Positions 1,727-56,467 of a stretch of DNA of 64,000 nt are shown one piece after another. How positions within the stretch are numbered: position 1 is the stretch's first letter; the number at the start of each line of letters is the position of its first letter. The stretch covers positions 40,486,001-40,550,000 of the forward strand of contig OX597831.1 in the NCBI GenBank assembly GCA_951406725.2, given 5' to 3'. Source of the stretch: Octopus vulgaris (Eukaryota). Position numbers and translations under genes: made by a program. Under the pieces are notes generated by a model that saw nothing but the letters and a program-made list of their open reading frames with translations, was not told where the DNA came from and did no database searches.

Positions 1727-2916
1727 ACGGACTTCTATGCATTTACCATTTCTTTTCTTCATTTCTAAGACGTTAAGATATGATTTGAGGGAATATTGTG
1801 CGTTATCTCTTACAAGCCGAGTTACTTATTTTGGTCGGTGTTAACTTGTTGATCACCATGACAGAAATAGAAAAAGTGGAAAGAAACCGCAACAAAATGA
1901 AACAAAGCAGCCATTTTGAAATTCGTTCCCTCATTATCTCATTAGTGTACTATAAAATACGTCATTTATATACTCTATTATATCTATTAGAAGCGAAAAA
2001 TTAGATCACAATTCCGACATTAATTTACTACGACTGTCAATGAATTAGTAGCATTAAAAGTTAATCCATTAATTCTATATCGTTTTTACAGTTATATCTA
2101 TTTGTTATGCTGCATCATAGGTCGAACGTCCTTTACAAATTATCAGTTAACAATAAAAACCTTTTGTCTTCTGATTTTCACAGTAACGAATCTCTTAAGC
2201 AACGAAGGTTTTAAGCTAAATGGTTTCCACTGTATCATATCGTATCGTAAAGCAAGCGTAGTTACTTTCTGTTGTTACATCTGAATTGACGTCCATTCTC
2301 TTCTATTAAATTTGATTGAGGTGTCTATATTTTACTCTGTTGTTTATCGACAGACAATGGCTTTTGTTATTATTTGTTTTTGTTTTTTCCTTTATGTCTC
2401 TTCTATCCTACCACATCTTTTGTTAATGCTTCAAAACGAATGTGCTGACTCGTTTAAGACCGTTGATGCCTCTAACGGGGTAACAATTTGTTCATATTCC
2501 GTAGGGGGGAAATAAAAACGAACAACGATGGGAAAAAAAGCTATAACAATAAAGCTCGATATTATTTCTCCTTTGAGTATGAGACGTCCTGGCACAGCAG
2601 TTTTGGCGCCGTTTTGTCATCACTGAATCGACGTTGACTTATTTGACATTAGAGATTTTAATACTTCTTTCGCTCTCTCTTCTCCTTCTCTCTCTACCTC
2701 TACCTCGTCTCCCTCATGTACATATACTGTTTGCTGTTAAAAATGTTTAAATTTAATAGTAATTATTTTCAGATTTCGAAAATTTAAAGATGTAGGTACT
2801 TTAGCTTTAGTTTATTAATGACTCAAGTAAACGAAATTTATAGTTTCTCCAACTCATACAGCCACCAAACTTCGACAGAGACCCTTTATACGGCGTGCAT
2901 ATATATATATATATAC

Positions 2917-3112
2917 ACAAAATGGGAAAAGAATGCAAAACATCCAGAAGACGATACAAAAAACACGGACGGGTCATTCGAAGCCTTTAATCTTCAGTCA
3001 AGAACCGGATCATCCTCGCAATTTCGGCTGATTAATCTTGAGATTGCTCCAATCTGGCCAGCACCAAGGAAAAACTTAGCTAAGAGAATTAGATTCCTTG
3101 GAAAAAAGCTTC
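2917..3112 (-). mobile_element. R1 short repeat element, probably Penelope-like non-autonomous
   Basis: Homologous to 53930-54175, 54810-55070 and 56000-56115; 3' end abuts (TA)n. Confidence 0.75.
2982..3047 (-). ncRNA. Putative non-circularly rearranged hammerhead ribozyme (family R1, best copy)
   Basis: Minus strand reads GCAAU-C^UCAAGA-uuaauc-AGCC-GAA-AUUGC-N14-UCUUGA-CUGAAGA-uuaaa-GGCU. Stem III is GCAAU/AUUGC, stem I is UCAAGA/UCUUGA, stem II is GGCU/AGCC. Confidence 0.6.
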
Positions 3113-9118: not shown

Positions 9119-9986
9119 TTTGTATATAAACGCAAACATACTTATGCGTGCACACACACAAACACACACATACATACATATATATACATATACATACACA
9201 AAATAAGAACAAACACAAGGAAGAAACCACAGGTCAGGTTCCTTTAGAGCGCGCGACTGTCTCTGTGCCAACGACTGGACATACTCGGGCTCAATGTACC
9301 GAAATAATGAACGTCTTTCACGTGGGATGCGACAGAACAGAAAATCATCCCACGTTCCGAAGCAACCTATCTTCGGATGGGCATAGAAATCATCAAGAAA
9401 TGCGCGCGCACACACACACAAACACGCACACTCTCTCACACACATACATACACATACATATAAATGCAAAACGAGGTGGACAAATAGTTCTCAAATACTA
9501 AAGTGCCATGCTTGTATTATTGCTTGGCTTTTTTCTTGAACGTCAGACCTGGTATAACCTTCGTCTAATAATGCATCGGGCTTGATATTCTCTTCACCCA
9601 TATTTGCACTATTTGGTTCACACGAGACGAGTTCATTGTTCAAATAACCGTGAAATTTATGTTGTCGTTTTCATCGTCGTTATCATAGTTGTCATCAGCC
9701 TAGACATCATCATCCTCGTCGTCCTTGTCATCGAAATGCTGGTCTTGTGTTTTAGTCGCTTCAGTATAGGTTTGCCCAACTTCAGCTGTGGTGTCATCTG
9801 AGTTACTGTAGTTTTTTGCGCTGATGAAACAGACATATAATCAGAAGAATACCCGCTTGGATAATTCTATTCTTATTCAAACATACGTGTATCTGGGATT
9901 ACGTTATCCTTATCTATCGTGAGAAGTTTGGTTATGAGTCAATTAAGCATAGCATCAGGGACAGATCACGACTATATCTAGAAGAC

Positions 9987-10125
9987 ATTATTTACATTAT
10001 TTACATTTGACGGATATTTGTCCTCATCTTGTTGTTTGTACAACGTTTCGGCTGATATACCCTCCAGTCTTCATCAGGTGTCTTGGGGAAATTTCGAACT
10101 TGGGTTCTCATTTCTAAGGTATTTT

Positions 10126-10210
<85 letters not shown>

Positions 10211-10327
10211 CCTTATTAGGGCCGCGCTCTATTAGGGCCCGCGCTCTTAACCACTACTCCATCTGGCGTAGTGGTTAAGAGCGCGGGCTACTAACCTCAC
10301 GATTCCGAGTTCGATTCCATGCAGTGA

Positions 10328-10411
<84 letters not shown>

Positions 10412-10566
10412 AAAATACCTTAGGAATGAGTACCCAGGTTCCAAATTTCCCCCAAGACACCTGATGAAGGCTGGAGGGTATATCAGCCGAAACGTTGTGT
10501 TAACAACAAACAAGATGAGGACAACTATCCGTCAAATGTAAATAATGTAAATAATGTACATAATTC
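9987..10566. mobile_element. Head-to-head pair of tRNA-headed, hammerhead-carrying SINE-like elements (family A)
   Basis: The plus copy 10263-10566 has A box tggcgtagtgg, B box gagttcgattcc, (TAA)n, an HHR and a tail. An inverted partial copy occupies 9987-10257. Confidence 0.8.
10455..10501 (+). ncRNA. Minimal type I hammerhead (family A)
   Basis: GACAC-CUGAUGA-a-GGCUG gaggguauau CAGCC-GAAAC GUU^GUGUU, with a palindromic ACGU stem III (dimer type). Further copies at 10038-10084(-), 39182-39228(-) and 42795-42842(+, degenerate). Confidence 0.75.
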
Positions 10567-20486: not shown

Positions 20487-20658
20487 GATAAATCTCAGAG
20501 CGAGTTATAAACAGTAGCGGTAACACATCGTGACGTATATTTGCCATTTGAATATGGCTAACCCCTAAGGGTGGATGCTACTGTAGTTTTTAGCCCTACA
20601 AACTACAGTAGCATCCACCCTTAGGGGTTAACCATATTCAAATGGCAAATATACGTCA

Positions 20659-20701
<43 letters not shown>

Positions 20702-38085: not shown

Positions 38086-38201
38086 ACCTAAGTATATATG
38101 CATATATGTATGTATCAAAATCAGATTTCCCATCACAAGAGTTTTATTAAATGAAATTATTGCACACATGTATACATTGATGTATATGTGTGTGCGCGCG
38201 T

Positions 38202-38298
<97 letters not shown>

Positions 38299-38320
38299 AA
38301 CACATATACACACATACAAG

Positions 38321-45450: not shown

Positions 45451-47534
45451 GGATTATGTGTGCGTGTGTGTAGTTCACAGATGTGACCCAGAGATTCTCC
45501 ATATAGAAGACACATAGGCGACTCATCTTATCCAATGTTAATTGCATCCATACGGCCGCTAAAAACCTACCATATATACTGCTAGTCTCACGATCCTGTT
45601 GTCTGCTAGAGAACGGTAGGGATTCGCTCCCCTGCTAGCAATACATATCTATGTACATGGTGGAGCGCTGCACCGATTACAATTAGCTACTTTGCTTCTT
45701 GCAAATCAGTGACCAATGGTCGCTTTGTTTACAATACATTACTGACTGGAGCGGACTTTGACTATATTTCTGGCGACCAGGTGCTCGCCAATGAAACTGA
45801 GTCAGTTACGAGATCCTGTTATCTTCTTGAGCATGGTAGAGGTTCACTCCTTTGCAAGTACTCTAGTATAATCAAGGTTCTGGCTAACCTGTGGTTCTCT
45901 TCAAAACCCATCGAGGTCACCCTTTGAATAAGTTGCATGGATACGTATATCCTGGATGAACTGAGAATGCAATTGAACCAAAAGGATACAACTTGATGCT
46001 ATGTCTTGAGATAACTATGCACATATCGGATAGGAATTTTAAGAGAATATCTTGTATTACTTCAGCAATTTTCTGCTTGCAGAACCCGCCATTATATATA
46101 TATATAGATTAGAAAAAAACACCTTTTATCAATTCAAGATGAACAATTAATTTACACCATCTAGAAAATTACATATAATAGAAATATTAAAATTAAAATA
46201 ACAATAATATACCGATGATTAAGTAAATTGCAAAAAAATATACGTTTTTATTATTTTGTTGCAATTTACTTAATCATCGGTATGTTATTTTTATTTTAAT
46301 TCTAATATTTCTATTATATGTAATTTTCTAGATGGTATAATTTAATTGTTCATTTTGAATTGATAAAAGGTGTTTTTATTCTAATTTATATATATATATA
46401 TATATATATATTATATTGTATGAAATTTGATTTAGTATTTCTAAATTGAATTTTTCCCTGTAATTTAGGATTGATATTCACTCAAATATATATATATATA
46501 TATGAATATATGGGAGTTGACCTGGCTGGTTCGCTAGCGCGTCGAACAAAATGCTTAGCAACATTTCGTCTGTCTTTTACGTTCTTAGCTTAAATTCCAC
46601 CCTGATCGCCTTTGCTTTTCGTCCTTTCGGAGTATATAAAATAAGTACCAGTTGCGTACTCGGGTCGATGCAGTTGACCTAGCCCCTTCCTCTCAAAAAA
46701 GTTGCCCTTGTTGCAAAAATTGAAACCATTATAACTGAACATGAAAAGAACATTAACATATATATGTGTGTGTGCGCGTGTGTGTGTTTATATGCATAGC
46801 CTGCGCGCCTTGTCGGTCGTGTGGCATCATTCGAAAGCTGCAAGAGCAACGGCAATGCGAGGAAGTGCATCGTGACAAGCGGTGTATAACAACATTTGGT
46901 AGTCTGGTCGATAGAATGATAAAATGATATATATATATATATATATATATGTGTATATGAGAGAGAGAGGGGTGATAGAAATCAGGAGAAAGTAGAAGGA
47001 GAGAGACAAAAAGAGGAAGAGATAGAACTTTTTAGGAGAAGCAATTAAAACAGGCCAAGAATACTGCATATACACCATCATTCTGCAGGCTAGAAATGGC
47101 AGCAAAATTTTGCTTCCAATCACACAGCACTGGTTTTCATTAAACATAATTTACATCGAATAATATGCTCCGAGACAAACTGCGTCTAAATATCAAATAT
47201 GTATAAATAAATAAATAAATAAATAAAAATACTGGTGTATTTGCGACTGAAACACAGTCGATGGTATATTTTTTGGATCAGGTTTACTTGCAGCTAACCA
47301 TCATTATCATCATCATCATCATCAACATCATCGTCGTCGTCGTCGTCATCAATAACAAGAATTATAAACGAAAGACAGGATGTGAGACGATGTTTAGCGA
47401 AATTATTTCCGGGAGAACGAAATGTTTCACGGAAGCAATTAGAAAACAAAAATGATCGAATTGACAATGCTTATTTATATCCGAAACCAAATTATTTACA
47501 AACCAAAACAATGCAACTATTACATAGCCGCTTA

Positions 47535-49260: not shown

Positions 49261-50170
49261 ATTAAAAACAGAAAAAGAAGAACACACGCACACACACACA
49301 CACAACACACACACACGCACACATACATATATACAACATATGGGGATTTAGTTCATAGGTGATCTAAACGACTAGGTACGGTAGGTAAGTACTGTAACGG
49401 ATTACTAGGCTTCCAAGGTTATAGCCGAGACGGTAATTATGGAGCCATTGTAGATTTCCGATATATCGGATATATAATTGTTAAAGAGGTCAACAAATGT
49501 TAAAGCAAGGCAAACAGCTCAAGTCATACATTATTATTATTGGGAAAAAAATTCAGTCTTACAGCCGTTTCCGGGATATCCCAGAATATGGAGTATCCCA
49601 TACTCCGAGATATCCCAGAAACAGCTGTAAGACTTTGGATTTTTTCCAATAATAATAATGTATATGACTTGAGATGTTTGCCTTGCTTTAACGTTTGTTG
49701 TCCTCTTTAACACTTTTACATGCATACATACATATATATTCATCTATATATGTGTATATATATATATAATTTTTCGCCACCAGCGGTCCCTGATATTGAT
49801 TAATTAATGATTTTTTGGCTAATTCTGAAATTAAATCAGCAGTTTATATTTGTTGCTGAGAAGTTGGCGAGGTGACGGTAGATTTTGAAAATTTAGAATA
49901 TATATTCTCGAGGCGTCGATGCTGTCGCCTCGTGGATATATATTTCCCTGGCTTCTTTGCTGACGAGACAGGCCAGTGGCAAATAGATTTAATTTAATTT
50001 AATTAAATCGGCTTGCCAATATGTATGTCGAAACTATGTATAGTCCAAAGATGATAAGGGTAAATGTTTTTATTTTCCTTTGGTTTCTGAATTACAACTA
50101 TTTAGCGGTTTGAGTTTAGCTGCTCTTTCTAGTGGGTCGAATGGCCTATCAAGGCCATTCCTCAATATTG

Positions 50171-53910: not shown

Positions 53911-53929
53911 ATATATATATTCGTATTAT

Positions 53930-54173
53930 TTATGTATATATGTCCGTTTTTCCGTCCTTGTTTCGTATACATTCGAAGCTTTTTTCCAAGGAATCTAATG
54001 CTCTTAGCTTAGTTTTTCTTTGGGGCTGGCCAGATTGGAGCAATCACAAGATTAATCAGCTGAAATTTCGAGGATGATCTGGTTCTTGACTGAAGATTGA
54101 AGGCTTCGAATGACCCATCCGTTTTTTTTTTTTGTAACGTCTTCTGAATGTTTTGCGTTCTTGTCCCATTTTG

Positions 54174-54175
<2 letters not shown>
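53930..54175 (+). mobile_element. R1 element copy; degenerate rearranged HHR at 54040-54105
   Basis: Same sequence family: GCAATC ACAAGA..AGCT GAA ATTTC..TCTTGA CTGAAGA TTGAA GGCT. Confidence 0.75.
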
Positions 54176-54207
<32 letters not shown>

Positions 54208-54809
54208 ATTCTCTAAAAGGGATATAGACAGTAACTGCTCGATAACATAAGGGACTAAAGCCATCTGAATATGGCTAGGGACAGGGCAGGGTGGTGGGGG
54301 TGTTACTGTTGCATTTAGCCCCAGGCGAACATCGACGTCACCAGAAAGGCTCGCGTACGGTGCCCTTAACCTGCACCCTTTGTTCTCTTATATGTAAGTA
54401 TACATTTCACTAAAGTTGGTACGACTCTACAACACTCTTTCTCTCCCCCCTCTCCTACATTTCTTTGTCTTTCTTTCTTTGCACGTCACTTTGCCCCCGT
54501 CTCTTTTTCTCGCTCTCTCTTTTCTCCTCCTCTTTAATTCCTTGTTCCTCTTTTCTCTCTCTTCTCCCCCTCCTTAATTCCTCTGTCCCTCTTTTCCTCT
54601 CTCTTCTCTTCACACGTGACCGACTGGCCGACTACTGGCCTTTTGGGTCTGGCAGCGGTCGTGGTAACATCAACATTTTTTCTCTGCTCCGAGGCACATT
54701 CCTAACACGCCAGCTGAGTTCAATTCGTCTAAGTCGAAAGACGCCTTTTGTGATGTCCTGTTATTGTTATTAATATTATTATTATTGTTGTTGTTTTTTC
54801 ATATTATTT

Positions 54810-55067
54810 ATGTATTCATATTCGTGTAACATCGTCTGTTTTTCCGTCCTTGTTTCGTATACATTCGAAGCTTTTTCTTTTTTCTAAGGAATCTAATGCT
54901 CTTAGCTTAGTTTTTCCTTGGGGCTGGCCAGATTGGAGCAATCTCAATATTAATCATCCGAAATTTTGCGGATGATCCGGTTCTTGACTGAAGATTCAAG
55001 GCTTCGAATGAATCGACCGTGTTTTTTGTAACGTCTTCTGAATGTTTTGCGTTCTTGTCCCATTTTG

Positions 55068-55070
<3 letters not shown>
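54810..55070 (+). mobile_element. R1 element copy; degenerate rearranged HHR at 54938-55003
   Basis: Same family, more substitutions; ends in (TA)n. Confidence 0.75.
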
Positions 55071-55123
<53 letters not shown>

Positions 55124-55276: not shown

Positions 55277-56467
55277 TGCGTAGGTATAGGAGGGGATTCT
55301 TTCATTTTCCTACCTCCAAATCCACTCACAAAGCTCTATCGGTCCCGCTCTATAGTAAAAGACACTTGCTAAAGGTGGCACGTAGTGGGACTGAACCCAA
55401 AAACCACATGATTGAGAAACAACCTCCTTAACCACATAACCATGCTAAGGCCTATTACAGCAACAACAAAAAAAGAATAACATAACAAGAGATAGAGAGA
55501 GAGAACCAGATGCAAGAATTAAACATTTAGTTAGAAGCACAAGTCTTTTCTCTGTACAGTATACCAGAAAAATAGACAAATTACTTGGAGTTAGTTGAAA
55601 TTGCTAAATACCCTTGAAAGAATTGGCGGGTACGCAAGAGATGTTTCTTATAGAATCAACCTCACCACTCTCATCTCTGTCTCACCTATGTGGTAAGAAG
55701 TTTGCTTCTTAATTACATGGGTCGAGGTTCAATGCCACTGTCCTACAGTCCCATTCTCCCACTGCCTGGCACTTTTGGTGCGTGTTTGAGCTGACCAAAG
55801 CCTGGTGAGTTGATTTTTCAGACGAAAACTGAAGGAAGCTTCTCATATATATTGTTTGTTCCTTCTCGAGCCATGCCTGGCTCATAAGGTCCAGTTTCCC
55901 GGTTTCCTTGGCGTATAGGTTCCCCACCTGGACGGGACGCCGGTCCGTCGCAGGTGAGCTGCAAAATGCAGGAGGAAAGAGTGTTTATTTACCATACATT
56001 TTTGTATTCATATTCGTGTAACATCGTCCGTTTTTCCGTCCTTGTTTCGTATACATTCGAAGCTTTTTTCCAAGGAATCTAATGCTCTTAGCTTAGTTTT
56101 TCCTTGGGGCTGGCCATATACATATTTTATTTATCATATATATACTTGGCCACAGCTCATGTGCTGAAACTAGATAGAATAAATAAAAAATAATATATAT
56201 ATATTATTTTACTCTTTATCTTTTATTAAACTTTTAATACTTTTGATATATATTTAAAATAATATTAATTAAATTAATTTTATGTATTGGCTTATGTTTT
56301 TCATAGTTTGATTTGCCTAATAGTGGTTTTATCTCTAATTTATTATAATATAATATAATATATTTATACTATAAAATTGGATTTAATCCTAAATCTGATT
56401 TTTCCCTGTAAGTTTGGATTTATTCCCTAATATTTTATTATATATATATATATATGATAGATAAAAA

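Follow-up and report, generated by a model that had tools for sequence, protein, structure and literature searches.

The window, by which we mean the whole 64-kb (64,000-nucleotide) stretch of Octopus vulgaris DNA analyzed here (contig OX597831.1, positions 40,486,001 to 40,550,000), contains on its minus strand, from 3047 to 2982, a complete set of hammerhead ribozyme parts, each of which was located in the sequence where an earlier note, made from the sequence alone, had placed it. The blocks read on that strand in the order cut site, GAAA, CUGANGA, or S-G-C. They are carried by a copy of a repeat that we call family A, and three more pieces of the same family lie between 53927 and 56115. 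The features are as follows, in window positions.

2899..3112, minus strand: family A repeat copy, 5'-truncated, its 5' end 71 nt upstream of the cut and its 3' end running into (TA)n
3043..3047, minus strand: S block, stem III strand (16.x) GCAAU, from sequence and covariation
3042, minus strand: C17, from sequence
3041..3042, minus strand: predicted cut between C17 (3042) and U+1 (3041), by hammerhead analogy and as the most frequent 5' junction of truncated copies (29/98)
3036..3041, minus strand: stem I, 3' strand (1.x) UCAAGA, from sequence and covariation
3030..3035, minus strand: S-to-G link UUAAUC, of which one U and one A are invariant in 29 aligned copies
3026..3029, minus strand: stem II strand 11.x, AGCC, with two candidate partners, from pairing statistics
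3018..3025, minus strand: G block, GAA (3025-3023) and stem III strand (15.x) AUUGC (3022-3018), from sequence and covariation
3004..3017, minus strand: G-to-C linker, whose GG (3006-3005) is an alternative partner of CC 3027-3026 (stem II*), from pairing in the alignment
2998..3003, minus strand: stem I, 5' strand (2.x) UCUUGA, from sequence and covariation
2991..2997, minus strand: C block, CUGAAGA, with position 7 A, G, U or C across subfamilies
2982..2990, minus strand: 5-nt insert (2990-2986) and GGCU (2985-2982), the stem II strand of the earlier note, which shows no covariation
3041..3055, minus strand: competing hairpin of 6 bp that spans the cut site (-2.7 kcal/mol), missing from subfamily A'
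53927..54197, plus strand: second family A copy, motif at 54040-54105, with substitutions that break stems I and III
54375..55092, plus strand: near unit-length copy (about 720 bp) sharing 80% identity with a long family copy, with a decayed motif at 54938-55003
55998..56115, plus strand: family A fragment ending 14 nt before the cut site, with no ribozyme

The layout had been said to recur, with decay, at 54040-54105 and 54938-55003; both copies are present and decayed, but their strand is the plus strand, and stems I and III are interrupted in each of them. The pairing GGCUG/CAGCC that had been ascribed to these two copies is not theirs, as they read CAGCU and CAUCC, and it belongs instead to family-typical copies. 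The other proposed competitor, AGAUUG/CAAUCU, is a real hairpin; it is weak and absent from A', so a conserved switch is not established. An Rfam scan of the 64-kb window gave no match, and the S-G-C order corresponds to none of types I, II and III (CGS, GSC and SCG). A type I reading of the second half of the motif (CUGAAGA ... CGAAUG ... GUC) was rejected by inspection for want of a valid A15.1-U16.1 pair and of a stem I, and a plus-strand hammerhead was rejected since its core has no G8. Nested folding with ViennaRNA, which cannot model pseudoknots, gave a probability of 0.05-0.07 for stem I and of 0.002 for stem III. The copy in the window is an insertion that retains an intact motif and is probably silent.

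Searches of the genome (2.8 Gb in 227 contigs) recovered at least 2,305 candidates for family A, with copies 94-98% identical to that in the window. Among the 30 best copies the 3' end is constant and mostly lies beside (TA)n, the 5' end is variable, and in five the start of the element follows directly on its tail. Head-to-tail units were also found as eight same-strand pairs 699-859 bp apart among the 100 matches listed. A (TA)n target, 5' truncation and partial tandems are thus all present, features that are not specific to the Naiad group of Penelope-like elements (PLEs), as Neptune PLEs have them too. Around the loci of families A to E, no open reading frame (ORF) was found joined to the repeat among the matches listed. 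The anatomy of family A is that of a non-autonomous Penelope-like element. The repeat was also present in contigs of four sequencing runs, among which there were no informative ends. Several long inverted repeats elsewhere in the window (9985-10557, 20527-20662, 38181-38310, 46093-46400 and 49470-49721) would fit inverted tandem insertions of PLEs or MITEs.

The ribozyme motif extends well beyond family A. A pattern fixing the core and three stem I pairs had 10,877 genomic matches, compared with 12 for the reversed pattern. In 400 kb sampled at fixed intervals, the SGC order gave three matches against 0.1 in shuffled sequence, a control that is weak on its own because in the same sample CGS (four matches) and GCS (one match) also exceeded their shuffles (0.05 each). 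Examination of flanks and pattern searches together distinguished sister families that keep the layout and differ in stem sequence, designated B, C, D, E, F, G, H, I, J, K, N and A'; in C, E, K and N the stems are unrelated in sequence and the layout is identical. In families E and J a 1-nt insert precedes a stem II of 4 bp, and family K has a 5-bp stem II following a 1-nt insert in the majority of four copies. Family H was rejected as a canonical example, its sole copy with a 1-nt insert being a deletion variant and the other five matches differing, mostly in ways incompatible with stem II*. The family K motif (L048, L051, L060 and L033; six matches of this type) is close in sequence to that of the acanthocephalan Naiad_Plae, and is flanked by a second CUGAUGA-like and a second CCGAAA-like segment.

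Two other kinds of hammerhead-like repeat were seen. A separate family (L031, L034, L038, L039, L042, L053 and L054) has the S-C-G order, its stem II being a hairpin of 6 bp and its stem III 4 bp long; only four bases lie between its cut and CUGAUGA, so that stem I cannot close as a hairpin. At G000:C25:33647344-33647824 there are tandem 33-bp units, each with CUGAUGA, a short hairpin and GAAA, which make up a minimal hammerhead repeat.

We examined covariation in an alignment of 29 of the first 30 core-pattern matches, one family-E row of different length being left out; neither stem III nor the outer half of stem I had served to select the rows. Of the cells in stems I and III, 93.9% were paired, compared with at most 57.6% when partners were slid. 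Two-sided changes occurred in 8 of 11 pairs (four of six in stem I and four of five in stem III; 28 cells, a count that overstates independent events because the aligned copies are related), and shuffles gave 3.4 pairs with none of 500 reaching eight. The three invariant pairs were all fixed by the pattern, the compensatory changes sort by subfamily, and the score is depressed by two family-F rows whose stem III is out of register. The earlier note had proposed covariation of all three stems as a check: stems I and III show it and stem II does not. An arrangement that arose by chance in one repeat and was then amplified by copying has in its favor that a single founder can yield thousands of matches and that a free insert makes for a loose descriptor. 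Against it stand the compensatory changes across subfamilies, the recurrence of the layout with unrelated stems in families C, E, K and N and in cnidarian, squid and acanthocephalan Naiads, and a step in 5' junctions at the predicted base (see below). Covariation and junction step refute chance unless both are artefacts, and we regard this explanation as highly improbable. We conclude that the motif is a real, selected homolog of the hammerhead with a non-circular block order; in the source elements it is probably active, and its stem II may be of a new kind.

The earlier note had proposed 5' truncations at UCAAGA as a check. We used a junction pattern that allowed only A/T in a flank 11-18 nt upstream of the cut; it had 682 loci, of which the first 100 were tallied by hand and two unrelated rows dropped (n = 98). 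Of these junctions 85 fell at +1 to +9 and 13 at -12 to -1, a ninefold step per base, and this under a pattern whose design favors upstream junctions because these need a shorter A/T run. Exactly at +1 there were 29 of the 98, three of them ambiguous. Positions -4 to -2 have microhomology to (TA)n equal to that of +1, yet account for seven junctions. An earlier junction pattern, which overlaps the same set, put the junction at +1 to +9 in 20 of its 23 distinct loci. All ten of the +1 loci that were fetched proved to be complete small insertions that start at the cut and reach the family's 3' end. Three of the ten belong to subfamily A', which does not have the competing hairpin and in which +1 is unpaired (P 0.01). 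The expected truncations are thus present, and we take the step as indirect evidence of cleavage in vivo, read from genomic copies. Most copies run across the cut site; cleavage would therefore be partial, or the templates tandem or circular.

The same observations bear on the possibility that the motif is an inactive or barely active relic, in which stem II no longer exists, a PLE protein recognizes the retained stems I and III, and the junction peak marks a transcription start or a stall of reverse transcriptase at +1. Such a relic would explain why most copies extend upstream past the site and why classical stem II is 2 bp or shorter in 11 of 26 subfamily representatives, and in subfamily A the 6-bp hairpin ends exactly at +1. 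However, natural hammerheads with a stem II of 1-2 bp are active (PMC3088659; PMC11300833, in the parts consulted), the hairpin is weak at -2.7 kcal/mol, and +1 junctions occur in A' as well; a transcription start at +1 is a possible source of the step. Among the 26 representatives, moreover, any of the four bases (A, G, U, C) can stand at N7 and the triplet is AUC, GUC, AUA or GUA, all of them NUH, with the catalytic bases unchanged; the search patterns themselves had fixed the core letters. We consider a relic unlikely.

A further alternative is that activity arises only in dimers or tandems, blocks from two units combining, for example, into a type III arrangement across neighboring repeats. 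Minimal PLE hammerheads function as dimers (PMC4209133, as far as consulted), the head-to-tail units described above would provide the neighbors, and the S-to-G link of families A and C has short palindromes. Unlike that of the dimer-dependent forms, stem III here is a full 5-7 bp and non-palindromic. Nor could a dimer make up for the stem II partner that B2 and D lack, since the pairing would still have to be between the same strands. This alternative appears quite improbable, less so than chance and more so than a relic. The central proposal of the earlier note, that the repeat family encodes a non-circularly permuted hammerhead, is upheld by the S-G-C order, the covarying stems I and III and the 5' truncations at the predicted cut.

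The identity of stem II is a separate question. The version in the earlier note, with a 5-nt insert after the C block, was paired in 77.8% of cells and received no support from covariation (291 of 500 shuffles were equally high); its G10.1-C11.1 pair is kept in 16 of 27 rows. Inserts next to CUGAnGA are known only up to 1-2 nt in the consulted parts of PMC10085705. With some insert allowed, 15 of the 26 representatives reach a classical stem II of at least 3 bp, five of these with an insert of 0-1 nt. An alternative partner is the linker GG just 5' of the stem I strand, whose two pairs with the CC before GAAA form in 27/27 and 25/27 rows; the pairing is invariant, and covariation therefore cannot speak for this stem II*. 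Read by eye, Naiad motifs from coral, hydrozoan, box jelly and squid that have no classical stem II carry the same GG at a distance of 1-3 nt from stem I, and Naiad_Plae has a different, 7-bp stem II with the CC bulged. A helix between the bases following A9 and the linker was rejected as a general feature, its 70% pairing being equaled by slid controls. Given activity, the linker would be the best candidate for the stem II partner, at somewhat under an even chance; the insert model is a less probable choice, and little or no stem II slightly less probable again.

We next consider what the linker pairing would imply. It would mean that CUGANGA and the stem II strand are not one block: the CC before GAAA would pair with the GG 5' of stem I, stem II* and stem III would together form what we take to be an H-type pseudoknot, and the backbone would be open between A9 and G10.1. 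Such a hammerhead would have four blocks and fit none of the six known orders; it would be active in vivo and common to octopus, squid and cnidarian Naiads. With the CSG motifs of nematodes (see below), non-circularly permuted hammerheads would then be standard in much of the Naiad clade. We put this forward tentatively, as a proposal that is rather more apt to fail than to hold.

The 3' ends of Naiads provide a further set of comparisons. Naiads have been reported to target (TA)n and to have no canonical hammerheads, and eight of their families, the octopus one included, were flagged 'HHR_half_core'; the passages on hammerheads in the same paper propose no permuted form (PMC8557442). We surveyed by eye the last 330-450 nt of 53 of the 54 consensus records in the supplement consulted, with one further search. 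SGC motifs with stems I and III of at least 4 bp were found at nine 3' ends (Amil, Aacu, Anas, 3_Chem, 2_Movir, Plae, Obim, Ovul and Esco), including near-duplicates in the three Acropora and the two Octopus records, and Bfor has a partial SGC. A complete CSG with three stems and a 5-bp stem II is present in seven nematode records (Hcon, Hpol, 1/2/3_Nbra, Asuum and one in supplement part 13). Neither arrangement was seen within the last 330-450 nt of the bivalve and hemichordate records consulted. Another conserved motif of about 60 nt occupies the same place in Naiads that have no hammerhead core (CGi, Sglo, Olur, Tgra, Pmar, Skow and Pfla, with a similar one in 1/2_Chem); it may be a different structured RNA or ribozyme.

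In the octopus genome, one sister family matches the published 3' end of the octopus Naiad. The Naiad_Ovul-type motif had 316 genomic matches and none in the control, and at nine loci, from a comparison with the 100 motif matches listed, it lies 0.8-1.9 kb downstream of the end of a Naiad ORF on the same strand. A protein search with the Naiad C-terminus gave 124 matches, the longest open frame being 263 amino acids, with no intact element among the matches listed. The octopus Naiad copies examined are old and broken, and family A is young. In the loci examined, family A was not joined to an ORF with an N-terminal GIY-YIG, a CxC motif and a reverse transcriptase (RT), and only ORF ends of family N were seen. 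Family A and the curated Naiad 3' motifs share the layout and differ in stem sequences; from this shared architecture, family A is most likely Naiad-derived. A GIY-YIG search led to four examined loci of Neptune type, with a C-terminal endonuclease and 3' ends unrelated to family A. Neptune-type elements with 781-amino-acid open frames are abundant, and a Neptune-type PLE is a candidate supplier of protein in trans. One such element (L201, 445-2787) has intact ORFs with RT, zinc-finger linker and C-terminal GIY-YIG and appears recently active. The 3' UTRs of a second Neptune-type family (L202-L204) end in a conventional type I hammerhead-like motif.

The earlier note had placed the order outside types I-III and taken it for a new instance. 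It is indeed none of types I-III, but it has already been named and experimentally supported as type SGC, for which the measured rates are 0.007-0.19 per minute (Eckert et al. 2023, PMC10085705, consulted in part); the known non-circular permutations there are 583 SGC sequences and two CSG. The earlier note had such hammerheads reported from Xenopus; the order is that of type SGC, described from metatranscriptomes, and the word 'Xenopus' does not occur in the main text of that paper. Like HRIMA-1 and its variants in the consulted text of PMC10085705, family A has the S-G-C order, CUGANGA, GAAA, NUH, covarying stems I and III, and a short stretch joining stem I to the strand that precedes GAAA. 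The type SGC sequences came from metatranscriptome, metagenome and RefSeq searches, whereas family A is an animal retroelement with more than 10,000 copies; 'Octopus', 'Metazoa' and 'Eukaryota' have no occurrence in the supplement text. Stem II of family A is furthermore not adjacent to A9, and the candidate helices that would join the free sides of stems I and II are weak or invariant. Type SGC allows an insert of at most 1-2 nt before stem II and family A needs 5 nt, so that we class it as a variant working like SGC rather than a strict member; in sister families E, J and, by majority, K, stem II lies within the allowed distance.

Other systems share some of these features. The octopus repeats resemble Naiad PLEs (Craig et al. 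2021, PMC8557442, as consulted) in (TA)n targets, 5' truncation, partial tandems and the SGC layout at the octopus Naiad 3' end, and differ in that family A had no ORF in any locus examined. As in type I PLE hammerheads, the ribozyme sits in a PLE terminal repeat with short non-coding tandem units, and the 1-nt insert before stem II of that type is seen here in families E, J and K; the type I forms, however, are circular in order and dimer-dependent with a minimal stem III, whereas family A is non-circular with a full one. In the pseudoknot-containing hammerhead (PMC11300833, consulted in part), helix II can be as short as G10.1-C11.1, its structural role passing to another helix, but there G10.1 follows A9, where family A has a U. 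Non-LTR retrozymes carry a type I hammerhead per tandem unit, and family A has tandem units with an SGC ribozyme. In our literature search, which mostly covered journals outside subscription so that an earlier report is possible, PMC10085705 alone described type-SGC, type-CSG or permuted hammerheads, and neither the consulted parts of PMC8557442 nor those of a 2026 retrozyme preprint connect Naiads or cephalopods with hammerheads.

These results can be joined in the following scheme, which taken as a whole we think likely to be correct. The stretch would come from a non-autonomous Penelope-like retroelement, most likely of Naiad descent, whose 3' end it copies. The transcript of the source element would fold an S-G-C hammerhead core with stems I and III as pseudoknots and would cut itself after AUC; this cleavage would trim transcripts that are tandem or read through. 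Another element would presumably provide, in trans, the PLE reverse transcriptase and GIY-YIG endonuclease that prime at (TA)n and copy the RNA from its 3' end. Copying of cleaved RNA would stop at or just before +1; copying of uncleaved, tandem or circular RNA would pass the site.

With more than 10,000 core matches and many subfamilies, one animal genome offers a natural mutagenesis set for a fold that has no solved structure in the literature compared. If stem II* is true, the hammerhead core tolerates a strand break where continuity was assumed. The junction step at the cut would be a genomic record of cleaved RNA as template, and the role of PLE ribozymes therefore becomes testable by counting. 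That Naiads thrive with no canonical hammerheads was taken as a hint that the ribozymes may merely parasitise PLEs (PMC8557442, as consulted); the SGC and CSG motifs at Naiad ends are a possible answer to this puzzle.
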